28,963 nt of DNA from an uncultured Oscillospiraceae bacterium (GTDB lineage Bacteria; Bacillota; Clostridia; UMGS1883): NCBI GenBank assembly GCA_964442035.1, contig CAYTWZ010000002.1, positions 2,211-31,173 of the forward strand, in the 5' to 3' direction. Shown one piece after another: positions 2,225-28,963 of this stretch (position 1 is its first letter; every line of letters begins with the position of its first letter). The notes beneath the pieces are model-generated. The model ran no database searches, had not been told where the DNA came from, and was given only the letters and a program-made list of their open reading frames with translations. Position numbers and translations under genes: made by a program.

Positions 2225-2290
2225 TAAAGTAAGGGATTTTTGAATAATTTGCGCTTGCGGCTTAGAACAACTCTTGAGGTTATTTTACTT

Positions 2291-2362
2291 ACAATCAGCG
2301 TTTTAGAATTAATCAGGGCTTCCTTAGGATAAATTATAGGGAAAATTATTCCGGGAGATGAT
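2291..2362 (+). promoter_or_regulatory. Conserved leader block, copy A: ACAATCAGCGTTTTAGAATTAATCAGGGCTTCCTTAGGATAAATTAT...GGGAAAATTATTCCGGGAGA. It contains the AATCAG(N11)AATCAG motif.
   Basis: About 70 nt are homologous to 24603-24680 (GAATTAATCAGRGCTTCCTT is 19/20 identical, plus GGGAGAAAAATCTTATTCC/GGGAAAATTATTCC). The 25-nt core recurs at 24476-24508 on the minus strand and at 27708-27731. Confidence 0.5.
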
Positions 2363-3675: not shown

Positions 3676-3688
3676 AGTGAGGTACACT

Positions 3689-4417
3689 ATGGACTATAAG
3701 CTGATTGATTTTCATACACATATTCTGCCCGGCATTGACGATGGAAGCAAAAATGCGGAAACGTCGGTCAAAATGCTCAAAAGACTGGAAGAACAGGGTG
3801 TAAGCGATGTTGTACTAAGCTCCCACTTTTACGCCTCCCAGAACAGCATTGAGGAATTTGCACTCCGGCGAGAAAAAAGCCTCGGCCGTCTTTTGGAAGA
3901 GCTTGATAAGACTCCCGTAAATATCAGGCTTCACCTTGGGGCGGAGATATTGTTCATGGATTACATTGACCGGGTAGAGGGCCTTAGTGAGCTTGCCATA
4001 GGCAAAACCAAATATATTCTGTTGGAGATGCCCTTTGTCAAGTGGAGCGAAAGGATGCTGGGAACAGTCTACAAGGTCATAGGCAACGGCTACATTCCTG
4101 TTATTGCCCACTTTGAGCGCTACATTCCCATACAGGGAAAGCTGGATTATATATATGAGCTAAAACGTATGGGCTGCATACTTCAGATGAATGCCGGCAA
4201 TTTTAAAGGCTTTTTCCGGAAGGGGAAGGCGTTGAAGTTTTTTGAAGATAATACTGCATCGCTTTTAGGAACAGACTGCCACAATCTGGACAGCCGACCT
4301 CCCGAGCTGAAGGCGGCCTATGAAGCAATAGGCCAGAAGCTTGGGGAAGATGAACTTCGGCGCATAAGCGCTGTAGGGGAAAAAATCCTCGAAAATTCCC
4401 GGACAGTGTATAACTAA
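3689..4417 (+). CDS. CpsB/YwqE-type PHP-family protein-tyrosine phosphatase (manganese-dependent).
   Basis: The N-terminus MDYKLIDFHTHILPGIDDGSKN is the hallmark of CpsB. An AAGTGAGGT RBS lies 5 nt upstream of the ATG at 3689. The track ORF begins at an in-frame GTG at 3677. Confidence 0.8.
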   Translation: MDYKLIDFHTHILPGIDDGSKNAETSVKMLKRLEEQGVSDVVLSSHFYASQNSIEEFALRREKSLGRLLEELDKTPVNIRLHLGAEILFMDYIDRVEGLSELAIGKTKYILLEMPFVKWSERMLGTVYKVIGNGYIPVIAHFERYIPIQGKLDYIYELKRMGCILQMNAGNFKGFFRKGKALKFFEDNTASLLGTDCHNLDSRPPELKAAYEAIGQKLGEDELRRISAVGEKILENSRTVYN

Positions 4418-4525
4418 ACGAAAGATGTCCCCCGTTGGCGGGCGATCCTTTCGTTTTCGGGGAGATCAATCTCCCACCGAAAACGCCCCATGACGGGCTT
4501 TCAGCCCTTATTGAACTAAAAACAG
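4409..4525 (+). ncRNA. Candidate structured cis-regulatory RNA (riboswitch-like or intercistronic element), copy 1. It runs from the cpsB stop codon to just upstream of the RBS of the 4578 membrane-protein gene.
   Basis: Paralogous to 25391-25510, sharing TATAACTAAACGAAAGATGT, CCTTTCGTTTT(T)CGG, GGGA.ATCAATCTC, CGAAAACG/GAAACG and GGGCTTTCAGCCCTTATTG. Two mutually exclusive hairpins are possible: AAACGAAAG/CTTTCGTTT, and CGTTTTCGG/CCGAAAACG enclosing GGAGA-TCAA-TCTCC. A short GC hairpin followed by TTATTG follows. Confidence 0.5.
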
Positions 4526-4577
4526 GAGAACATTCGGTGGGAGAAAGGCTTTGTATTTTTAAAAGGAGGTATTTGAC

Positions 4578-5339
4578 ATGGGTGACGATTTTACCCTCAG
4601 TGACAAGCAAATTCGTGAAAACCGAAATCGGGAGTACCGCAAAGATCCGCCGGAGCTTATCTTAGTCATAATATGCGTGGCCGCTGTAGTGACGGGTGTG
4701 TTTTTCCCGGGGGAAATGTATGATTCGGTGTTTGGTACCGAGCTTATACTCAGCAATCTCATCCGCGTGTTCTTGGCTGTACTTGGTTTTATATTCGGAG
4801 TGCGAATTATTGTTCCTAACCATAAGATCACTTATATTTTTGGCGGAATAGTGATTCTTGTGTCCGTCATACTGGCCTTTTCTGCTACGCCTGAGGCCAT
4901 GATTGCGTTTGCGATGGGCTTCGCGTCTATGATCGTATCTGCGGCAAGACCGTCGGTGCTTGTAATTACGGCAGCTGCTGTGATACTTGTGGAAATAATA
5001 AAGCGGCTGTATATTATATTCGGCCCCGGACAAAAGGCTTCCCGTGGGGGAAAGGTATTGACCCGTGTATCTGCAATCTTGGGCGGGCTTTCCATATTTA
5101 TTGCGCTGCTGATGCCTATGGTCGATCAGGAGTATCCCGGCATGGCAACGGTCGTGCTTTGGATAGTTGGGCTGATATGCGCCGCCGGCGGGTTTATTAC
5201 AGGAGTTGTTGTAAAGCAGCCGTCATATAATACCGGGGACTGGCTCCGGCTCATAGCTTCAGCGGTGGGTATGGGAATACTGCTTTCCTGTATTACTACA
5301 ATATTCGGCCTCCCCGTGCTCGACTTTATGAGGTGGTAA
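4578..5339 (+). CDS. Polytopic membrane protein of unknown function (about 6 predicted TM helices).
   Basis: An AAAGGAGG RBS lies 8 nt upstream of the ATG. Hydrophobic segments are spread through the ORF and there is no recognisable family motif. It is preceded by leader element copy 1. Confidence 0.6.
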   Translation: MGDDFTLSDKQIRENRNREYRKDPPELILVIICVAAVVTGVFFPGEMYDSVFGTELILSNLIRVFLAVLGFIFGVRIIVPNHKITYIFGGIVILVSVILAFSATPEAMIAFAMGFASMIVSAARPSVLVITAAAVILVEIIKRLYIIFGPGQKASRGGKVLTRVSAILGGLSIFIALLMPMVDQEYPGMATVVLWIVGLICAAGGFITGVVVKQPSYNTGDWLRLIASAVGMGILLSCITTIFGLPVLDFMRW

Positions 5340-13653: not shown

Positions 13654-13724
13654 AATTTACATAGCCTTTAATTCACTTTAATTTGCGTGATTTTTGACAT
13701 AGAATGTTCAGTTATACCATATGC

Positions 13725-13764
13725 GGCTAAGGGCAGCCGGCCGATTGCGGCCGACTGCCCTTAG
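13725..13764 (-). terminator. Strong hairpin (17-bp stem with one mismatch, GCTAAGGGCAGCCGGCC / GGCCGACTGCCCTTAGC) 12 nt downstream of the stop codon of the large surface-protein gene.
   Basis: Inverted repeat read directly from the sequence. There is no clear U-tract. Confidence 0.45.
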
Positions 13765-13775
13765 CAAGAGATCGG

Positions 13776-16700
13776 TTATTTGCTTACTGACGTCAATGCG
13801 CATGAGGATGAGCCTGAGTACGTGCCGCCGGTCACTATTCCGTATGGCTCTTTCCCCGTGAAAGCGCCACCTGTTACGCTCCCTCCGTAATTTAATGTGT
13901 ATGAGCCGCTTTTGATTTCAGGTGTTGATATAAATACCCATGCGTATGCTTTTGACGGTACATATGTCACAATTTCATCCCCGCTTGAATTTGTTAGCTT
14001 GAACGCCTTACCCGCTGATTGTGATGAAAAGCCGCCTGAACCGCCCCACATACCGCTGCCGGAGGAACTTGACGAAGTCACAACGTAATACTGCTTCGCG
14101 CTGTCGGGAGTTATCGCCATATCGGATGAACCTGCGCCAATTACAGTACCTCCTGTAATTGAAAGTGTGTCGCCGTTGTTATCGCCTATGTCAAACACGC
14201 CGTTCCCGCCGCTTGTGGGGCCGTTTACAAGAAGCGTACCGCCCGAAATTAGAGCGCTGCCGTTGCTGTCAAAGCCATCGCCCTCTGCTTCGATATAGAC
14301 CAGTCCGCCGGATATTTCAACATATCCGTATGTCGACGAATCCTCACCGCCCCAGTTGGGACCGCTGTTCCAGCCTTGATTGCCGCCGTTCCAGCCTTGA
14401 TTGCCGCCCGGCCCCGCTAAAAGCTCAACTGACAAAGCGGAAACGGTATCAATGTCATATGCGCTGTCTGTCGGCTTGTCGCCTGCCGCGTTTACACCGT
14501 CGTCAGAGGAAACGATTCTTGTTTCACCGCCTAAAACATATATATTTGCGGCTTCTATGCCTTCATAGCTCTTTGTAATATTTATATCGGCGTTATCGCT
14601 TATATAAAGATAGCTGTCGCCGTGTATCCCATCGTCGCCTGTGGCGGCGGTTATGCTTCCGCCGATTATGCGCACAGTATGGTTTGAATGAACGGCGTCA
14701 TCATAGGTGTTTATATTGAAAGTGCCGCCACTGATATAAACAAGGTTGCCGCCCTTTACGCCCTTACAGCTGCTCGCCGCCTCGGGATTGTTTGCCGAAA
14801 CGGTCTGGGGCGCACCGCCGTATGCGGTCAAATCAAATGTGCCGCCGGAAATATTTGTTATGTTCTCGCTTTGTATACAATCCTGCTGGGAATTTACAGT
14901 GATATTGCCGTCTGTAACAACAACATTTCCGGTCCCGCACTGTATTCCGTCCTCGCTACAGGTTATGTCAAGAGTTCCTCCGTTGATATCAATTTCACCC
15001 TCTACATAGGCGAGAACCGTTGCTCCGTCTGTGTCGTATATTACCTCATTTACTTGAATTCCCTCCAAGGCTTTGGTGATCGTTATATTTGCGCCGCTAC
15101 CTATTGTAATGTTTTTTACCGCTTTGATTCCGTCCTCACCGGCCGACGCGACAATTGTGCCGCCTGTGATCGCCACACAGCCATCGCCCTCGGCAGGCGT
15201 GCCACTTGTTAACGTCGTGTCCTCAAGGTATGCAATGCTCGAAGCATTAGCCTTGATAGCTTCACCCGCGGCGTTGATCGTTATGTCGCCGCCAGTGATC
15301 GTGAGAAGAGTATCAGCTTGTATGCCGTCCCCGTTTGATACAGTGCCGTCCGTGCCTGTTGTTGTTTTTGAGGTTATATTTATTGTGCCGCCGTTTATCG
15401 TAACAGAACCGCCGGAAACGTATTCATTTGTCAGCGCGTCAATTTCAGGATCCTGATCGGACTTGATTCCGTCTCCTCCGGAAACAACCGTTATCGAATT
15501 GTTTTTCTTTGTGATTTTTACGGATTGGTCACCCTTTATGCCGTTGTTTGCGGCAGTAACATTTAAATCGCAGACGCCAATTTCGATGTCGTTCTTACAG
15601 CGTATGCCGTTCCCGTAATCGGATATTGCGTTAAGCGTTCCCTCACCCTTTATTGTAAGGTCATTCTTGCTGTAAATTGCTGTTGTATCCCCGTCCGATG
15701 AAGCTGATCTGAATGTGCTTTCGTTTTCTGTGGGAACAAGTGTTACCGTTCCCTTTAAACCGTCAAACGCGTTCCCCGTTGTGCTTGTTACGCTTACACC
15801 GTCAAGATTGACGGTGATTAAATCTGTCTTTTCGGAGGAATTAACTATTATCTGTCCATCGTTTAATGTGCCCTCAACGGTATATTCTCCCGCCGCCGTA
15901 ATTGTAACGGCAGTTCCAGATACGGTTACATTTTCAATGCCATCGGCATTCACGCTGTCACCCATAAGATGTATTATTCCGTCACCCGCGGAAATTACGG
16001 GATCCTGTGGAGATTCCTCCTCAGTCGCTTTGGTGGTGACGGTAACAGTGATATCGCCTGTTATCTTGGTTATTCTGTATGTATTTTCCCCAAGCTCGGA
16101 GGGCAGCTTTAGATTTTTGTAATTTGTTGACGGGGTCACTTCAACAGATTCGATCTCGTAGCCCTCATCCGCGGTAATCTTAAAATTCACCTGTCCGTTG
16201 CCGGAGGTATCGATTTCGCCGGTGTCGCCGCTTCGCGCGTATGCCTCTGTAACAAACTGCTCATCGCCTGTAAACACCTGCGTGTCAGACACGGCTATTG
16301 ATGCGTGGGAATCGGTCTCAAATGTCGCTTTAAAGCCCTCCGCTGTCGTTGCCTTGGTGGTGACGGTAACAGTGATATCGCCTGTTATCTTGGTTATTCT
16401 GTATGTATTTTCCCCAAGCTCGGAGGGCAGCTTTAGATTTTTGTAATTTGTTGACGGGGTCACTTCAACAGATTCGATCTCGTAGCCCTCATCCGCGGTA
16501 ATCTTAAAATTCACCTGTCCGTTGCCGGAGGTATCGATTTCGCCGGTGTCGCCGCTTCGCGCGTATGCCTCTGTAACAAACTGCTCATCGCCTGTAAACA
16601 CCTGCGTGTCAGACACGGCTATTGATGCGTGGGAATCGGTTTCAAATGTTGCTTTAAAGCCCTCCACAGGAACAAACACATCACTTAGCGGCTCAAGGGT

Positions 16701-17033
16701 CAGTACGCCGTTTTCTGTTTTCCAGAAAAAAGCTTTTAAAACATCGCCGTCATCTTTTAATGTGCTGTTAAAGACAAGCGACTTGTTGCCGGTTCCGTTT
16801 GTTTCTTCGGATACCACAATGCCCTTGAGCTGCCCTAAAGAGTCATATACCGCAACAATTCCTTTCCCGCTTTCGTCTGAGCCTTTGCTTACGACCATTG
16901 ATATATTTCCGTTCTCGTCAATATCCAATGAGGTAATTGAGCAGGCAAGCTCTGCCGCCTCCGCGGCAATTGAAAAAACCATCAGCGATAAAACGATGAT
17001 AAAACATAGAACCTTTGTGGAAATGGATCTCAC
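13776..17033 (-). CDS. Large secreted right-handed parallel beta-helix (pectate-lyase-fold, possibly Cthe_2159-like carbohydrate-binding) surface protein with two tandem Ig-like domains.
   Basis: MRSISTKVLCFIIVLSLMVFSIAAEA is a signal peptide. There are two identical 108-aa repeats (EGFKATFETDSHASIAVSD...ITVTVTTKAT). Many beta-helix rungs follow (GGTINITS, DGIKA, GDGIQA, DDGIHG, DDGVNA). The C-terminus is Gly/Asn/Ser-rich (GGNQGWNGGNQGWN, SSSSSSGSGMWGGSGG). Confidence 0.6.
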   Translation of the reverse strand: MRSISTKVLCFIIVLSLMVFSIAAEAAELACSITSLDIDENGNISMVVSKGSDESGKGIVAVYDSLGQLKGIVVSEETNGTGNKSLVFNSTLKDDGDVLKAFFWKTENGVLTLEPLSDVFVPVEGFKATFETDSHASIAVSDTQVFTGDEQFVTEAYARSGDTGEIDTSGNGQVNFKITADEGYEIESVEVTPSTNYKNLKLPSELGENTYRITKITGDITVTVTTKATTAEGFKATFETDSHASIAVSDTQVFTGDEQFVTEAYARSGDTGEIDTSGNGQVNFKITADEGYEIESVEVTPSTNYKNLKLPSELGENTYRITKITGDITVTVTTKATEEESPQDPVISAGDGIIHLMGDSVNADGIENVTVSGTAVTITAAGEYTVEGTLNDGQIIVNSSEKTDLITVNLDGVSVTSTTGNAFDGLKGTVTLVPTENESTFRSASSDGDTTAIYSKNDLTIKGEGTLNAISDYGNGIRCKNDIEIGVCDLNVTAANNGIKGDQSVKITKKNNSITVVSGGDGIKSDQDPEIDALTNEYVSGGSVTINGGTINITSKTTTGTDGTVSNGDGIQADTLLTITGGDITINAAGEAIKANASSIAYLEDTTLTSGTPAEGDGCVAITGGTIVASAGEDGIKAVKNITIGSGANITITKALEGIQVNEVIYDTDGATVLAYVEGEIDINGGTLDITCSEDGIQCGTGNVVVTDGNITVNSQQDCIQSENITNISGGTFDLTAYGGAPQTVSANNPEAASSCKGVKGGNLVYISGGTFNINTYDDAVHSNHTVRIIGGSITAATGDDGIHGDSYLYISDNADINITKSYEGIEAANIYVLGGETRIVSSDDGVNAAGDKPTDSAYDIDTVSALSVELLAGPGGNQGWNGGNQGWNSGPNWGGEDSSTYGYVEISGGLVYIEAEGDGFDSNGSALISGGTLLVNGPTSGGNGVFDIGDNNGDTLSITGGTVIGAGSSDMAITPDSAKQYYVVTSSSSSGSGMWGGSGGFSSQSAGKAFKLTNSSGDEIVTYVPSKAYAWVFISTPEIKSGSYTLNYGGSVTGGAFTGKEPYGIVTGGTYSGSSSCALTSVSK
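16028..16676. repeat. Perfect or near-perfect 2 x 324-bp tandem direct repeat inside the surface-protein gene.
   Basis: The unit beginning TTGGTGGTGACGGTAACAGTGATATCGCC...GCTTTAAAGCCCTCC occurs at about 16030-16353 and again at 16354-16677, with about 2 mismatches. Plus-strand ORFs 16198-16446 and 16522-17145 mirror it. Confidence 0.85.
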
Positions 17034-24475: not shown

Positions 24476-24508
24476 GAAAACGCTGATTGATTCTAAAATG
24501 CTGATTGG
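24476..24508 (-). promoter_or_regulatory. Tandem motif CCAATCAGCATTTTAGAATCAATCAGCGTTTTC (minus-strand reading), 25-57 nt upstream of the GTG start of the sugar-nucleotide gene.
   Basis: Same 25-nt core as 2291-2315 and 27708-27731. AATCAGC(A/G)TTTT occurs twice with 17-nt spacing. Confidence 0.45.
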
Positions 24509-24602
24509 CGGGAAAATTTTTCTCGCAGTAAGGCAAAAAGCGCATGATTACTTGCTGTATTATGGGCTTCTTTAACCGAACTGCGGGGGAAATAACCGTC
24601 AA

Positions 24603-24680
24603 GCAGCGTTTTAAGCCGTAGACGTGAATTAATCAGAGCTTCCTTGATATTATTTGCCGGGAGAAAAATCTTATTCCAGG
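24603..24680 (+). promoter_or_regulatory. Conserved block, copy B: CAGCGTTTTA...GAATTAATCAGAGCTTCCTTGATATTATTTGCCGGGAGAAAAATCTTATTCC. It is homologous to the cps leader block at 2291-2362.
   Basis: Direct sequence comparison. An extra 11-12 nt is inserted relative to copy A. No ORF follows it. Confidence 0.45.
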
Positions 24681-24796: not shown

Positions 24797-24825
24797 TTGA
24801 CAATCATATGACCGTGTGATATAAT
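24797..24825 (+). promoter_or_regulatory. Consensus sigma-A promoter TTGACA-17 nt-TATAAT with extended -10 (TGaTATAAT) for the DUF1836-like/nfeD/flotillin operon.
   Basis: TTGACA at 24797-24802 and TATAAT at 24820-24825, with TG at 24817-24818. The AT-rich UP-like region 24740-24795 lies upstream. Confidence 0.65.
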
Positions 24826-24852: not shown

Positions 24853-25395
24853 ATGTATGTGCTTCCCGGAACAAATATTGAAGTAGGGGAGCTGTCCTTT
24901 GACAGCGTTAATTCGCTGCTGAATTCAATTTTTCTCACAGGAGGACTGGTGCTTAGTCAGGTGGCAGGAATGACTGACTGTGCTCCACATGTGGTGCAGA
25001 ATTGGGTCAAAAGAGGGTTTGTTTCGCCGCCGGTGAACAAGAAATACAGCAAGCGGCAGTTTTGCAGAATAGCCTTTATCAACTTTTTGAAGGATGTGAT
25101 GCAGATCGACAAGGTCACGGCGCTGATGGAATATATTAATGGGGCGCTGGATGATGAAAGCGATGATCTGGTGGATGACTGTACGCTGTACTGCTACTTT
25201 GCTCAGGTAATAGGACAGCTGACGGACTTCCGCCGGGACACCATAGAGTCTGTGGTGGAAAAGTCGGTCTCCGGAGGAGGAGACAGCTATATCCAAGTCA
25301 GGCTCAAGGCCACACTTATAGTTATGGCCACCTCTTACGGAGCGGCAATGCTTCGAAGCAGGGTCAATTTGCTTATAAGTCAGTTGGATATATAA
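24853..25395 (+). CDS. Small cytoplasmic protein with a MerR-like N-terminal helix-turn-helix (DUF1836-like). Possible regulator of the downstream nfeD-flotillin genes.
   Basis: An AAAGAGGGTGA RBS precedes the ATG. LSQVAGMTDCAPHVVQNWVKRGFVSPP resembles a MerR-type HTH. I assign the DUF1836 family from memory only. Confidence 0.4.
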   Translation: MYVLPGTNIEVGELSFDSVNSLLNSIFLTGGLVLSQVAGMTDCAPHVVQNWVKRGFVSPPVNKKYSKRQFCRIAFINFLKDVMQIDKVTALMEYINGALDDESDDLVDDCTLYCYFAQVIGQLTDFRRDTIESVVEKSVSGGGDSYIQVRLKATLIVMATSYGAAMLRSRVNLLISQLDI

Positions 25396-25510
25396 CTAAA
25401 CGAAAGATGTTCCCGACTATATGGGCGGTGAGCGACCCTTTCGTTTTTCGGTGGGATATCAATCTCGAAACGTTGAAAGAGGGCTTTCAGCCCTTATTGG
25501 AAAAAAAGGG
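25391..25510 (+). ncRNA. Candidate structured cis-regulatory RNA, copy 2. It runs from the stop codon of the DUF1836-like gene to the nfeD RBS.
   Basis: Paralogous to 4409-4525, with identical blocks TATAACTAAACGAAAGATGT, CCTTTCGTTTTTCGG, ATCAATCTC and GGGCTTTCAGCCCTTATTG. Indels between the copies are not multiples of 3 (a 21-nt segment versus a 28-nt segment), so no conserved peptide is encoded. Confidence 0.5.
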
Positions 25511-25523
25511 GGTCAAGGGGATA

Positions 25524-26162
25524 ATGTTCATTGTGAATTGGTGGAATGCCATGACAGCGGCTCAGCACGGGTTTTTGTATGTAGCGGTTCCGGCTACTTT
25601 AGTACTGGTCATTCAGACACTGTTGCTGATGTTTGGCATAGGCGACAGTGACGGTGATGTGCCGGACGGGGATATTCCCGATGTGGATGTTGGCGATGGA
25701 AATTTTCAGGCGGTGGAGGATTTCTCCAACTGCGATGTTTCCGGTGACTTGGACGGTGATCTGAGGATATTTACGGTCAGGGGTATGGTTGCGTTTTTCT
25801 CGGTGTTTGGCTGGTCAGGCGCGGCAATACTCGGAGGCGGACTTCCGCTGTGGTTTTCCGTTGTGGGGGCTGTAGTGGCGGGAGCTGCCGCAATGCTGGC
25901 GGTGGCGTTTATCGTCAAGTTTGCCCTTAATCTTCAGCAGTCGGGCAATATCAATCCCCGCAATGCCGTGGGTAAGTCCGGAACGGTTTATATAACTGTT
26001 CCTCCGGCTCGAAGCGGCAGCGGAAAGGTCAATCTTGTGCTTCAGGAGCGCTACTCCGAAATGGAAGCTGTTACCGATGGAGAACAGCCAATTTCGCCCG
26101 GTCGTGAAGTAACTGTAGTTGGAACTACAACAATGGGAACACTTATAGTTAGGGAAAAGTAA
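25524..26162 (+). CDS. NfeD-family membrane protein (YuaF/YqeZ-like; N-terminal TM helices plus a C-terminal OB-fold), partner of flotillin.
   Basis: A GGGGTCAAGGGG RBS precedes the ATG at 25524 (MFIVNWW...). There are two or three TM segments, a long acidic linker (DSDGDVPDGDIPDVDVGDG) and a C-terminal GKSGTVYITVPP...GKVNLVLQERYSEMEAV...GREVTVVG NfeD-like beta-barrel. The track ORF start at 25407 would translate the leader element. Confidence 0.7.
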   Translation: MFIVNWWNAMTAAQHGFLYVAVPATLVLVIQTLLLMFGIGDSDGDVPDGDIPDVDVGDGNFQAVEDFSNCDVSGDLDGDLRIFTVRGMVAFFSVFGWSGAAILGGGLPLWFSVVGAVVAGAAAMLAVAFIVKFALNLQQSGNINPRNAVGKSGTVYITVPPARSGSGKVNLVLQERYSEMEAVTDGEQPISPGREVTVVGTTTMGTLIVREK

Positions 26163-26184: not shown

Positions 26185-27561
26185 ATGACTGTTTTAATTC
26201 TGATCTGCGTTATCGTTGTGCTGCTTTTGTCAACGATCATGCTCATCGTCAGCCGTTACCGCAAATGCCCCTCTGACAAGGTAATGGTCATCTACGGTAA
26301 GGTGGGGGCTAACAGCGACGGCACAAGCCGTAGCGCCAAGTGCATCCACGGCGGCGCGGCCTTTATCTGGCCGGTGATCCAGGCCTACGAATATCTGGAT
26401 CTTACGCCTATTTCCATAAGCGTTGATCTTAAAAACGCACTGTCACGGCAAAATATACGTATTGACGTACCAAGTCGCTTCACAGTAGGCATATCCACAG
26501 AAAACGGCATTATGCAGAATGCCGCCGAAAGGCTTTTGGGACTTAAGCTGTCCGAAATTCAGGAGCTTGCCAGGGATATCATATTCGGTCAGCTACGTCT
26601 TATCATTGCGACTATGGATATTGAGGAGATCAATACCGACCGTGATAAGTTCCTTGAGGCTGTGAGCCGCAATGTGGAAAGCGAGCTTAAAAAGATCGGT
26701 CTGCGTCTCATCAACGTAAACGTAACCGACATCACTGACGAAAGCGGATATATCGCTGCTCTTGGTAAGGAAGCGGCAGCCAAGGCCATCAACGATGCCA
26801 AGCAGTCCGTTGCGGAAAAGGATCGTGACGGCGCCATTGGTCAGGCCAACGCCCAGAGGGATCAGCGTATCTCCGTATCTGAAGCAAACAGCCTTGCCAT
26901 AACCGGTGAGAACGAGGCTCAGATAACCATTGCCAAGTCTAACGCTGTTCGCCGTGAGCAGGAGGCCGAAGCTCTTCGCAGGGCTACTGCCGCCGAAAAA
27001 ATTCAGGAGGCAAAAGCCCTTGAGGATGCCTACGGTGCCGAAAAAGAGGCCGAAATGGCCCGTGCCGCCAGAGAGCAGGCCACTCTTGAGGCTGATGTGC
27101 TCGTAAAGGCCGAGATCGAAAAGCGTCAGAAGGAAATCGCAGCCGCCGCCGAAGCGGAGCAGTTGCGTATTAAGGCACAAGGCGAGGCGGACGCCATATT
27201 TGCAAAAATGGCCGCCGAGGCAAAGGGTATGCAGGAAATTCTTACCAAGCAGGCGGAGGGCTTTGAAAAGATCGTTGCCGCCGCCGGAGGCAACGCATCC
27301 GATGCCATGAGGCTTATGCTTGCCGACAAGATGGAGGAGCTTATGCGCATACAGGTCGATGCCATCAAGAATATTAAGATCGACAAGGTCACTGTATGGG
27401 ACAACGGTAAGGAGGGCAATTCCACAGCCAACTTTATCAGCTCTATGGCTAAAGCTGTGCCTCCTATGAGCGAACTGTTCGACATGGCGGGCATGAAGCT
27501 GCCGGAGTATCTTGGCAAGAAAAAGGAAGCGCCCGCCGCCGACGCGGAAGCAGTGGGGTAA
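26185..27561 (+). CDS. Flotillin-like SPFH/band-7 protein (FloT/YuaG-type) with a long Ala/Glu-rich coiled-coil (EA-repeat) region.
   Basis: An N-terminal TM helix is followed by the SPFH domain (...QNIRIDVPSRFTVGIST...). The region REQEAEALRRATAAEKIQEAKALEDAYGAEKEAEMARAA... is typical of flotillin EA repeats. A GGGGAGGAAAA RBS is present. Confidence 0.8.
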   Translation: MTVLILICVIVVLLLSTIMLIVSRYRKCPSDKVMVIYGKVGANSDGTSRSAKCIHGGAAFIWPVIQAYEYLDLTPISISVDLKNALSRQNIRIDVPSRFTVGISTENGIMQNAAERLLGLKLSEIQELARDIIFGQLRLIIATMDIEEINTDRDKFLEAVSRNVESELKKIGLRLINVNVTDITDESGYIAALGKEAAAKAINDAKQSVAEKDRDGAIGQANAQRDQRISVSEANSLAITGENEAQITIAKSNAVRREQEAEALRRATAAEKIQEAKALEDAYGAEKEAEMARAAREQATLEADVLVKAEIEKRQKEIAAAAEAEQLRIKAQGEADAIFAKMAAEAKGMQEILTKQAEGFEKIVAAAGGNASDAMRLMLADKMEELMRIQVDAIKNIKIDKVTVWDNGKEGNSTANFISSMAKAVPPMSELFDMAGMKLPEYLGKKKEAPAADAEAVG

Positions 27562-27631
27562 AGCTGTAACCTAAGGAAACGCTGAATAATTTACGCCTAC
27601 GGTTTAAAACAAACCTTGGCGATTAATTCAC

Positions 27632-27661
27632 CGGCAGCTCGGTTAAAAAGCCGAGCTGCCG
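27632..27661 (+). terminator. Hairpin CGGCAGCTCGG-TTAAAAAG-CCGAGCTGCCG downstream of the flotillin gene.
   Basis: 11-bp perfect stem with no clear U-tract. A GAATTAATC motif in reverse orientation (GTGAATTAATCG) lies directly in front of it at 27616-27629. Confidence 0.4.
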
Positions 27662-27707
27662 CAAGTATTCATGTGCCTTTTGCCTTGCCTCGAAAAAATA
27701 TTCTTTG

Positions 27708-27731
27708 CCAATCAGCATTTTAAAATTAAAC
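27708..27731 (+). promoter_or_regulatory. Third copy of the CCAATCAGCATTTTAAAATTAAAC motif, placed about 20 nt upstream of the -35 of the LRR-protein promoter.
   Basis: The first 16 nt are identical to the minus-strand copy at 24476-24508. Confidence 0.4.
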
Positions 27732-27749
27732 AACGCTTCATTTAATATC

Positions 27750-27862: not shown

Positions 27863-28963
27863 TATGAGCAAAGGAAAGCTTTTGCCGATACTGATGAGTC
27901 TGACAATGTTGGGCTCATCGGTCAGTATCCCCGTTTCCGCGGCGGAATACACCGACAATCAGATAGCGGACACGGTAGCCCGTGTAGCTGTGACGGAGAT
28001 TTTTGCCACGGATGTGAGCGAACCCTCTGAGGATGAATTTATTGCTCCTGCCGAAGATGTAGAAGAGAACGAGGCGGAAAAAGCGTCACAGGAGGATGCT
28101 TATGTCATGACAGACAGCGATGTTAAACTGTTCGCGGATTCATTGACATATGAAAACCTGCAATACGAAGTAAATGACGGCAATATTACAATAGTGGGCT
28201 GCAATGACGGTGTGGAAAGTATTGATATTCCCGCAACTATCGATGGGGAAGCAGTTACGAGTATTTCCGCTTACGCTTTCAGCGGACATTCAGATTTAAA
28301 AAAGCTCACCATACCGGAGGGAGTGACATATCTCGGGGCTTACTTTTTGACGGGAACAGCCGTAGAGAGGCTGACCATCCCCTCCACAGTGACGGAATCC
28401 GGGGGCAGCATCAACGGCGCGTTGGCCGGTTCCGCGGTTACAGAGCTGACCTTTGCGCCGGGCACGGTAAAAATTCCGAATAACATTTGCCGCAGCGATT
28501 CGCAGGGCAGTCTGCTTGAGATAGTCAATTTGCCGGACGGAGTGGAGACTATCGGAGATTGTGCTTTTACAAACGCCAAGAGCCTGACAAGGTGTGACCT
28601 CCCGGAGTCCGTTGTTACGATAGGAAATAACGCTTTTCAGAACTGCGTCAGTCTGGACGGCGAGATAAATATTCCCGCCAGTGTAAAAACTATCGGAGAT
28701 TACGCATTTGATGGCTGCAAAAGTATTACAAGCGTAAAAACCAACCTGAACACAAGCTCCGAGTGGGTAGGGACGGATAAAGTTTCCTTTTCAGCAACAA
28801 TTGGAAAGATGGCTTTCCGGAACTGCACTTCAATGAACGGTTTTGAGCTTGCCGCCAGCGTGAAAACGCTGAATAACTATGCGTTCGAGGGCTGCTCATC
28901 CCTGAGCGAGCTCACCATACCGGAGGGAGTGACATATCTCGGGGCTTACTTTTTGACGGGAAC
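27863..28963 (+). CDS. Secreted BspA-type leucine-rich-repeat surface protein, 5' partial. It runs off the window end.
   Basis: An AGAAAGAAGG RBS precedes the ATG. MSKGKLLPILMSLTMLGSSVSIPVSAAEY is a signal peptide. The repeated units are IPxxVxxIGxxAFxxCxxL. The DNA segment encoding LTIPEGVTYLGAYFLTG occurs twice exactly, at 28304-28353 and 28914-28963. Confidence 0.7.

Follow-up and report, generated by a model that had tools for sequence, protein, structure and literature searches.

A hairpin-rich intergenic element inserted at two stop codons in an uncultured Oscillospiraceae bacterium

Genes at the locus and the start of the NfeD-like gene

The window is the whole stretch of DNA analysed here, 28,963 nucleotides from an uncultured Oscillospiraceae bacterium. 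On its forward strand, a DUF1836/MerR-like gene (24853..25395) encodes a protein of 180 aa that matches the Pfam families DUF1836 (E = 3e-13) and MerR_1 (E = 1.6e-5). Upstream of this gene lies a consensus sigma-70-type promoter (24797..24825, forward strand), TTGACA-17-TATAAT with an extended -10 TG, which agrees with the consensus at 12/12 positions. The next gene on the same strand (25524..26162) encodes an NfeD-like protein (YuaF/NfeD2-type) of 212 aa, called on the N-termini of its homologues, a Shine-Dalgarno sequence and a fold match. It is situated directly upstream of a flotillin-like Band_7/SPFH gene (26185..27561, forward strand; Pfam PF01145, E = 2e-27), from which it is separated by a gap of 22 nt, and this arrangement is common to relatives. 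The promoter at 24797 and the two flanks, a MerR-like DUF1836 gene and a flotillin gene, had been described in the first-pass annotation, and the promoter match and the Pfam matches to DUF1836, MerR_1 and Band_7 bear this out.

The longest open reading frame over the NfeD-like gene starts at 25407, inside the repeat element described below, and takes its ATG from the conserved ...AAAGATG... block at the 5' side of that element. This start would give the protein an N-terminal extension of 39 codons (25407..25523, forward strand). A total of 120 homologues, about 200-220 aa in length, cover only 84% of the long frame, and all aligned homologues begin at its residue 40, which is the ATG at 25524, with a conserved MFI..WWNAM. 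None of them carries the extra 39 residues. The earlier proposal that the longest frame falsely extends NfeD, with the real start at 25524, thus agrees with every homologue. The extension is spurious: its 39 codons result from translating repeat DNA, which relatives lack. Annotation by a longest-frame rule would give the NfeD-like protein 39 false residues.

The protein encoded at 25524-26162 has no Pfam match, PF01957 at its curated threshold included, and 7/22 homologues have weak matches to PF01957 (best E = 0.004). This result is consistent with the weak conservation reported for flotillin-associated NfeD2 (PMC2636767). The predicted model of the protein (mean pLDDT 75) consists of helices followed by five strands, and its C-terminal domain matches the NfeD soluble domains 3cp0, 2k14 (YuaF) and 3wwv with a probability of 1.00 and a target-normalised TM of 0.65-0.76. 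The model therefore has the architecture expected of NfeD, with a C-terminal OB-fold beta-barrel predicted after N-terminal membrane helices.

Two copies of an element inserted at stop codons

A repeat element of approximately 100-112 nt occurs in exactly two copies within the window, both on the forward strand. Copy 1 (4409..4517) lies at or after the stop codon of a CpsB-like gene (TAA 4415-4417). Copy 2 (25391..25503) lies at the end of the DUF1836 gene, in place of whose native stop codon it provides a new one (TAA 25393-25395). The second copy upstream of the NfeD gene had been noticed in the first reading of the sequence and is indeed present: positions 25391-25499 align with 4409-4513, including three blocks that are 100% identical, TATAACTAAACGAAAGATGT, CCTTTCGTTTT and GGGCTTTCAGCCCTTATTG. 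The copies share 89% identity over 100 aligned positions, with a further 20 gap columns; their ends are 100% conserved, and the interior is variable. A 19-mer of the element occurs exactly twice in the window even when 3 mismatches are allowed, and at least two matches were obtained in 0/100 shuffles. With a covariance model derived from the pair, copy 2 scores 134 bits and copy 1 scores 127 bits, and the rest of the window and 19 related loci (L001-L008, L013-L020) contain nothing above 14 bits. Each copy begins where the upstream gene ends, at its stop codon, and is extragenic and intercistronic or 3'-proximal, inside a string of co-directional genes and in the orientation of host transcription.

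At the junction of the DUF1836 and NfeD-like genes (site 2), the same gene order, consisting of an NTP-transferase gene on the minus strand, DUF1836, NfeD-like and Band_7, is kept in four independent related lineages (L001/L002, L003-L007, L008 and L015). The spacer between the DUF1836 and NfeD-like genes measures 18-22 nt in these lineages and 128 nt here. Because the gene order is the same and the spacer is so much shorter in the relatives, the element at site 2 is, on this comparison, a lineage-specific insertion and not a conserved leader of flotillin operons. The closest relative, L008, is collinear with the window at 90-92% DNA identity and has 3 nt where 112 nt are found here (blastn, L008 1151/1155 against window 25391/25504). 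Where the inserted DNA begins, the last residue and the stop of the DUF1836 gene differ from those of this relative, ATG TGA in L008 and ATA TAA here. The native Shine-Dalgarno region of the NfeD-like gene, AAAAGGGGGTCAAGGG, is common to L008, and TATAACTAA, the conserved left sequence of the element, was not found in the empty sites of L008, L001 and L003.

These findings bear on the proposal that the spacer is a conserved cis-regulatory leader RNA, riboswitch-like or an attenuator, which sets the expression of nfeD-flotillin relative to the DUF1836 regulator. The first-pass annotation had suggested such a structured leader and had named DUF1836-nfeD-floT synteny in relatives as a check. The relatives with the same gene order keep that order but not the spacer, which is 18-22 nt long and lacks the element; this is the outcome that the annotation itself had named as refuting. 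The empty orthologous sites in all syntenic relatives largely refute a conserved leader, which is now a very improbable explanation. Tempting as it is, the claim of a conserved cis-regulatory RNA in flotillin operons is unsupported, and the element is best explained as something other than a ligand- or stress-sensing leader.

At site 1, copy 1 is found at the end of a CpsB/CapC-type phosphatase gene (3677..4417, forward strand; Pfam PF19567, E = 2e-48). The orthologous locus L013, the one relative with conserved downstream synteny on which this insertion rests and derived from the same metagenome assembly as L008, aligns collinearly with the window at 85-87% identity, except that about 99 nt (window 4419-4517) are missing from it. 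The gene downstream of copy 1 (4578..5339, forward strand), which encodes a product of 253 aa with no Pfam family, adjoins the CpsB gene in L013 too. The hydrophobic sequence of this 253-aa product gives it an apparent transmembrane character as judged by eye. More distant CpsB loci (L014, L018-L020) have other downstream genes and no element, and are not informative for site 1. Taken at the level of aligned loci, insertion is shown at both sites and is best explained by events that postdate the separation of this lineage from its closest sampled relative.

The junctions of the two copies differ. Copy 1 is flanked by a 7-nt direct repeat, AACTAAA (left 4412..4418, right 4514-4520, forward strand), which is expected about 0.02 times by chance and could be a target-site duplication; copy 2 has no counterpart. 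Together with two clean insertions, fully conserved ends around a variable interior and hairpins close to both ends, this repeat would suit a transposase-mobilised miniature element (a MITE or an IS200/IS605-derived palindrome-associated element) with its parent insertion sequence elsewhere in the genome. Such an origin is a tentative possibility. However, no terminal inverted repeats were detected in the element, since the best local match between its ends is 5 nt, a score equal to the shuffle mean and reached by 399-414 of 500 shuffles. In addition, no target duplication around copy 2 can be reconciled with the empty site; the one repeat at its junctions, TTGGA, is expected by chance and would eliminate the stop codon. 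An IS200/IS605 target would already stand in the empty site, whereas TATAACTAA is missing there, and no mobility gene was found in the window, including transposase (Y1-type among them), RAYT and TnpB genes. A transposition mechanism is unsupported because terminal inverted repeats, a consistent target duplication and a mobility gene in the window are all lacking.

The left end of copy 2 invites another explanation. At site 1, TATAACTAA corresponds to the native last codons and stop of cpsB, where L013 reads TAC AGG TAA, and the same sequence stands on the left of copy 2. In that case no mobile family would be involved: illegitimate recombination, gene conversion or templated repair could have copied the element from one site to the other in a single ectopic event, in either direction, together with a few flanking bases. 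The substitution difference of 11% between the copies fits the flank divergence of 8-15% since the split from the L008/L013 organism, and no further copy was found in the collections searched. On the other hand, site 1 is itself an insertion, which leaves the origin of the first copy unexplained, and the alignments reveal no microhomology that fits the site-2 junctions. Two events exactly on stop codons suggest a targeting preference or strong selection, and the perfectly conserved end blocks suggest constraint. A single copying event is an unlikely account.

Predicted structure and searches for further copies

The consensus fold of the two copies contains three predicted hairpins. In copy 2, the variable inner hairpin of hairpin 1 (25398..25446, forward strand) is enclosed by an outer stem of AAACGAAAG and CUUUCGUUU (25398-25406 with 25438-25446). 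Folded alone, hairpin 1 reaches -18 kcal/mol (z = -2.3) and begins 3 nt past the stop codon; across both copies, hairpin 1 begins 0-3 nt past the upstream stop. Hairpin 2 of the consensus fold (25452..25467, forward strand) pairs GGGAU with AUCUC. Hairpin 3 (25481..25499, forward strand) is GGGCU-UUC-AGCCC followed by UUAUUG, is the same in both copies and has a predicted energy of -10.1 kcal/mol. The fold z-scores of the whole element are modest (copy 1, -3.5; copy 2, -2.4). The minus strand gives -4.1 and -0.6, respectively, and structure statistics do not discriminate the strand. Between the copies, 2/26 base pairs differ on both sides, and two sequences cannot show covariation.

Some of these features could be read in favour of a regulatory leader, such as the three hairpins and the two pairs changed on both sides. 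In the minimum-energy fold of copy 2, the C-rich GACCCUUU can pair with the native ribosome-binding region AAAGGGGGUC, and hairpin 1 and an extended hairpin 2 appear from the sequence to compete for CGUUU. Both copies also precede apparent membrane-protein genes, NfeD-like by its model and the 253-aa product by eye. However, the region that includes the ribosome-binding site of copy 2 has a z-score of only -1.9 to -2.0, and the terminator scan does not call hairpin 3, which has no proper U-tract. Copy 1 is predicted to form a different long-range helix, in which the native spacer segment TTCGGTGGGAGA (4533..4544, forward strand) is 12/12 complementary to 4470-4481 within the copy; L013 reads TTCGG--GGGAAA at the place of this segment. 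This pairing has no counterpart at copy 2, and neither long-range arrangement is common to both copies (z about -1.9 to -2.9). No Rfam family matches the element: Rfam 15 gave 0 matches at the gathering score and none relevant at E <= 1 over the whole window, and at E <= 10 the element region gave only spurious fragments of 11-15 bits (alphacoronavirus 5'UTR, Clostridiales-2 and SBRMV pseudoknot).

The same hairpins could instead form a transcription-terminator or insulator module gained between cistrons, with hairpin 1 (A-tract and U-tract), hairpin 3 or both terminating. In hairpin 1, an A-rich and a U-rich arm enclose a G+C-rich inner hairpin (AAACGAAAG...CUUUCGUUUUU, -17 to -18 kcal/mol), hairpin 3 has a G+C-rich stem followed by UUAUUG, and both copies lie at the 3' end of a gene. 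Nevertheless, neither hairpin passes a simple terminator scan in either copy, and the U-tracts are interrupted. In addition, a strong terminator would silence nfeD-floT and the 253-aa gene, for which no separate promoter is evident. A dedicated terminator is distinctly unlikely, whereas hairpin 3, which is weakly terminator-like although the scan did not flag it, may have weak terminator activity according to its predicted fold.

Further copies were sought in several collections. In the GTDB species genomes (genome_contigs), the exact pattern CTTTCGTTTT-N(25-55)-GGGCTTTCAGCCC had 3 matches, confined to the pattern blocks, in Hydrogenedentota, Prevotellaceae and Planctomycetaceae MAGs. In the JGI metagenome contigs (metagenome_contigs), ACGAAAGATG-N(55-85)-GGGCTTTCAGCCC had 1 chance match on a high-GC contig, and two exact patterns had 0 matches in viral_contigs; these scans require 19-24 specified bases to match and would miss diverged copies. 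No match to the element was found among plasmids and phages by blastn in distant mode. The concatenated six-frame peptides of both copies had no match at E <= 10 among 5.8 billion proteins, in a search of low sensitivity, as indels shift the frame between the copies.

Other element classes were considered and rejected. A conserved small open reading frame does not fit, as the ATG of the 5' block opens a 22-codon frame in copy 1 and the long frame in copy 2, with peptides that bear no relation to each other. ARAGORN found no tRNA or tmRNA from which the element could derive. The sole candidate for an outward promoter, TTGGAA-17-GATAAT (9/12) at the copy 2 junction, would start inside nfeD and has no equivalent at copy 1. 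In an integron attC site, the two ends (R''/R', L''/L') form a single long imperfect hairpin; the ends of the element do not pair, and matches to the RYYYAAC/GTTRRRY core sites are only partial by eye. A diversity-generating retroelement repeat and a group II intron remnant were dropped by eye, with no reverse transcriptase or integrase nearby and unpaired ends. A ribozyme was also considered by eye, and no Rfam ribozyme matched.

Interpretation and comparison with known repeats

The element is, with considerable confidence, a lineage-restricted short interspersed intergenic repeat of the REP/BOX/RUP-like kind, non-coding, hairpin-rich and inserted at two operon-internal stop codons, although its status as a family rests on the thin base of two known copies. 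The element overwrites or abuts the native stop codon, and TAA is present in 2/3 of its reading frames; therefore, the upstream protein keeps its length. The position of the stop codon is preserved at both sites, and the downstream ribosome-binding site is left intact.

We infer that the element is co-transcribed within the operon mRNA, where the three hairpins would fold directly behind the stop codon. By analogy with REP/BIME, a passive effect is most likely, in which an intercistronic block of stem-loops would shield the upstream cistron from 3' decay, leak some termination or hinder terminating ribosomes. Expression would then tilt towards the upstream gene, and nfeD-flotillin would be uncoupled from the DUF1836 gene. 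Any such effect on operon expression is suggested by the likeness to characterized repeats.

A bolder and improbable extension is that the copies represent mobile, structured intercistronic modules of a family not yet described, in an uncultured Oscillospiraceae-like Clostridia lineage. Such a family might target junctions of stop codons and ribosome-binding sites in operons, bring stops in two frames, re-tune the ratio of upstream to downstream cistrons and spread without terminal inverted repeats, possibly via an RNA- or single-strand-DNA-mediated route. If the source genome has many copies at stop codons, the element would be a useful example of small repeats rewiring operon stoichiometry in gut or environmental Clostridia. 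What the locus itself offers is a modest case: a densely packed regulator-nfeD-flotillin operon has been split by a natural and recent insertion, and a sister lineage provides the "empty" allele with which it can be compared directly.

Among known systems, the cis-regulatory RNAs and riboswitches of Rfam 15 resemble the element in their position upstream of a gene and their several hairpins, but the element matches no family and is missing from orthologous loci. Correia elements, the MITEs of Neisseria, are co-transcribed intergenic insertions of approximately 100-150 nt that can bring terminator, promoter or processing signals. Their terminal inverted repeats of 26 nt and their TA duplication were looked for in the element, and neither was found. 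The BOX, RUP and SPRITE repeats of Streptococcus pneumoniae and the bcr repeats of the Bacillus cereus group are modular Firmicutes intergenic repeats of approximately 100-150 nt whose RNA is predicted to fold into stable structures. They are confined to single species or genera, lie between genes and sometimes alter the expression of neighbours. RUP is marked by terminal inverted repeats and a TA-type duplication and BOX by the module order boxA-B-C, whereas the element has none of these and no sequence relationship to these repeats.

REP units are single imperfect palindromes of approximately 20-40 nt, present in hundreds of copies and linked to RAYT transposases. In contrast, the element is approximately 105 nt long, has three hairpins and two known copies, is not accompanied by a RAYT gene in the window and has no sequence similarity to REP/BIME. 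REP elements influence both how stable the mRNA of the upstream gene is and how it is translated (PMC12306157). According to a statement in the same paper, which cites its ref. 17, REP hairpins located at most 15 nt from the stop codon stall ribosomes and lower translation. Like the element, the REP/BIME sequences of E. coli and other Proteobacteria are short, non-coding, hairpin-forming and intercistronic or 3'-proximal, and often lie a few bases past a stop codon. They are co-transcribed with operons, as the element probably is, and REP/BIME provide the best functional analogy for it.

A two-copy repeat behind stop codons

The element occurs twice in the window. Copy 2 (25391-25503) has the stop codon of a 180-aa gene (24853-25395) on one side and the ATG at 25524 on the other, and it was paired with copy 1 (4409-4517), behind a CpsB-like gene, by a repeat scan and pairwise alignment. 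The copies share three identical blocks, namely TATAACTAAACGAAAGATGT (20 nt), CCTTTCGTTTT (11 nt), and GGGCTTTCAGCCCTTATTG (19 nt). Overall identity is 89% over 100 aligned positions, and every one of the 11 substitutions and 20 gap columns falls in the inner hairpin or linker. The 19-mer occurs exactly twice in the window with three mismatches permitted, and none of 100 shuffles gave at least two matches. For the 13-mer AAACGAAAGATGT, a search permitting two mismatches likewise gave just two matches, both of them perfect. A covariance model built from the two copies scored 134 and 127 bits on them, and the rest of the window and 19 related loci gave nothing above 14 bits. Therefore, the two-copy repeat is real and far beyond chance, and the first-pass annotation was right to call the 25391 region a second copy.

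Contigs were fetched as relatives for five NfeD-like homologues. L001/L002 come from GCA_947630975.1 and an ENA assembly, L003-L007 and L015 from Logan, and L008, the closest relative at the copy 2 site (NfeD 91% identical), from GCA_037193305.1. The order NTP-transferase(-)/DUF1836/NfeD-like(/Band_7) is kept in all of these loci. The DUF1836-to-NfeD spacer is 128 nt in the window versus 18-22 nt in L001-L008 and L015. Window and L008 DNA align collinearly at 90-92% identity with a single break, where window 25392-25503 (112 nt) stands for L008 1152-1154 (GTG). The junction reads ...GGATATGTGAAAAGGGGGTCAAGGGTATAATG in L008 and ...GGATAT[ATAACTAAACG...CCCTTATTGGAA]AAAAGGGGGTCAAGGGGATAATG in the window. 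The insertion changed the last codon and stop of the DUF1836 gene from ATG TGA to ATA TAA, leaving the stop position and the native NfeD-like ribosome-binding region unaltered.

At the copy 1 site, the empty allele is known from one relative, L013, which belongs to the same metagenome assembly as L008. It has a CpsB orthologue of 91% identity and, 57 nt further on, the downstream gene found in the window. The two loci are collinear at 85-87% identity except for ~99 additional bases at window 4419-4517, immediately 3' of the TAA stop common to both. More distant CpsB loci (L014, L018-L020) have no element, and their downstream genes differ. Since collinear relatives lack it at both sites, the element is, by these comparisons, a lineage-specific insertion at each. 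The earlier reading of the spacer as a conserved structured leader controlling flotillin is not supported, as relatives with the same gene order do not conserve the spacer. Both insertions are unusually precise with respect to stop codons, and the element offers a tidy natural pair of filled and empty alleles.

In 185,579 species genomes and the JGI metagenomes, exact-pattern scans gave chance matches only. Scans of viral contigs, searches of plasmid and phage collections, and a six-frame peptide search against 5.8 billion proteins revealed no copy. A look-up of the window's own DUF1836 and CpsB proteins found no record of them. As no search gave a credible third copy, the element is considered rare and lineage-restricted in public data, where it is known from two copies and the scans have low sensitivity to diverged ones. 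Two chance matches in termite-gut-type MAGs (L010 3393-3445 and L011 237-305; Prevotellaceae, Planctomycetaceae) have TTTTCGCAGGGCGTTGCCCTGCGCTATT...GGGCTTTCAGCCC in common, which may be a separate repeat family across phyla or a binning artefact.

The NfeD-like gene and its neighbours

The long ORF at 25407-26162 would start inside the element. Its best 120 homologues are ~200-220 aa long and cover 84% of it, and in an alignment of 21 homologues, all begin at residue 40 (MFI..WWNAM), which corresponds to the ATG at 25524. The 39 extra codons are repeat DNA translated. The ATG at 25407 falls within the conserved 5' block of the element, right behind GAAAG at an unusable spacing. The homologues thus bear out the proposal that the 39-codon extension is spurious and that translation starts at 25524.

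The gene upstream of copy 2 matches DUF1836 (E = 3e-13) and MerR_1 (25.4 bits; cut-off 21.6 bits) in Pfam, and floT (26185-27561) is Band_7/SPFH, flotillin-like. A Pfam search down to E <= 1 gave no match for the NfeD-like gene itself, and just 7 of 22 members of its family weakly matched PF01957 NfeD (best E = 0.004). An AlphaFold model (32 homologues; mean pLDDT 75) has helices at the N-terminus followed by a five-stranded C-terminal domain. Its top three PDB matches are NfeD soluble domains (3cp0, B. subtilis YuaF 2k14, and PH1510-C 3wwv), each at probability 1.00 with a target-normalised TM of 0.65-0.76. In published work, flotillin (SPFH2) genes come with an NfeD2/YuaF partner of weak conservation (PMC2636767), and the modelled NfeD-like protein encoded beside floT fits this pairing. 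The promoter at 24797-24825 is a perfect TTGACA-17-TATAAT with an extended -10 TG (12/12). The proposed gene map (HTH gene, nfeD, and flotillin) is correct.

The DUF1836/MerR-like gene lies directly 5' of the NfeD-like and flotillin genes in L001-L008 and L015, and more loosely in L016/L017. The arrangement, with spacers of 18-22 nt, is kept across several Clostridia lineages and suggests that regulator, nfeD, and floT form a dedicated operon. Distant relatives have small ORFs and an LRR gene in among these genes. The literature searched contained no mention of DUF1836 together with flotillin or NfeD.

Other repeats and features in the window

The window is a housekeeping region (pgk-tpi-pgm, ABC transporter, S41 peptidase, trmO, and cps genes). 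It has another intergenic repeat, unrelated to the first and ~120-190 nt long, in three copies at 2225-2345 (+), 27567-27738 (+), and 24478-24665 (-), with the core AAGGAA.CTCTGAATAATTTACGCCTACGGCTTAAAACAA...GCAAGTAATCATG.GCTTTTTGCCTTAC...CGCCAATCAGCATTTTA and no Rfam match. For two of the copies, the site is the 5' leader of polysaccharide-related genes (the Wzz/cps operon and an NTP-transferase/phosphomutase gene), and the remaining one lies 3' of floT and 5' of a consensus-like promoter at ~27750, read by eye. The three copies may represent a common leader or regulatory region. Within ORF 13776-17033, which encodes a 1085-aa protein with Cthe_2159 carbohydrate-binding domains, a 300-nt unit is repeated at 16024-16647 (-) with 99% identity and a 324-nt period. 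A sub-threshold Rfam match to Chloroflexi-1 RNA at 13705-13778 (-), a G+C-rich hairpin just 5' of this gene (25 bits versus a gathering score of 80; E = 0.35), is probably noise. An exact 55-nt direct repeat (28303-28357 and 28909-28963, 606 nt apart) at the window end probably belongs to a repetitive coding region running past the edge.

Predicted fold, ends, and kind of element

The consensus fold comprises three predicted hairpins. Hairpin 1 (AAACGAAAG/CUUUCGUUU) encloses a variable G+C-rich hairpin and begins 0-3 nt 3' of the stop codon, hairpin 2 is short, and hairpin 3 is GGGCU-UUC-AGCCC followed by UUAUUG. Both copies fold somewhat more stably than their shuffles (copy 1, z = -3.5; copy 2, z = -2.4). 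On the opposite strand, copy 1 is equally well folded (z = -4.1), whereas copy 2 is not (z = -0.6). A simple terminator scan called no hairpin of either copy, and an Rfam search matched the element to no family.

In copy 2, a C-rich stretch is predicted to pair with the native ribosome-binding region. In copy 1, TCTCCCACCGAA (4470-4481) is complementary at 12/12 positions to TTCGGTGGGAGA (4533-4544) in the native downstream spacer, where L013 has the differing TTCGG--GGGAAA. Co-evolution of the site-1 flank with the insert may explain this, or the complementary sequences may be related. The string TTCGGTGGGA of the copy 1 pairing segment forms the 5' arm of copy 2 hairpin 2 (25446-25455). Since the two pairings are not shared, they define no common switch. 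REP-type elements are co-transcribed intercistronic hairpins, and those <=15 nt from a stop codon are reported to stall terminating ribosomes and lower upstream-gene expression (PMC12306157). By analogy, the element would most likely act passively, as an RNA-stability barrier, a leaky terminator, or a hindrance to ribosomes, and would shift the ratio of upstream to downstream cistron.

No terminal inverted repeats were found, the best end-to-end match being 5 nt, the level of shuffled ends. Copy 1 is flanked by the 7-nt direct repeat AACTAAA (4412-4418 and 4514-4520; ~0.02 expected by chance). Both copies share the left 12 nt, TATAACTAAACG, which are clearly part of the insert at site 2. At site 1, TAT AAC TAA looks like the original end of cpsB, where L013 has TAC AGG TAA. 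On one reading, the 7-nt repeat is a duplication around an element CGAAAG...TTATTG, and copy 2 arose from copy 1, bringing 9 nt of its flank along. On the other, the element is TATAAC...TTATTG without duplication and the repeat around copy 1 is coincidental. The sole repeat flanking copy 2, TTGGA, is at chance level, and the stop codon would be lost if it were taken as a duplication.

The window holds no transposase, RAYT, or TnpB-like gene. Compared with known types, the element lacks the inverted repeats of a MITE, the single 20-40-nt palindrome with RAYT of a REP, the pre-existing target of an IS200/IS605 derivative, the pairing ends of an integron-type attC, and the proper U-tract of an intrinsic terminator. 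The element belongs to none of the curated cis-regulatory RNA families of Rfam. Its best placement is as a new orphan in the general short-interspersed-repeat class, outside any named family. It is ordinary in kind, a short interspersed intergenic repeat like the REP/BIME, BOX/RUP, bcr, and Correia elements.
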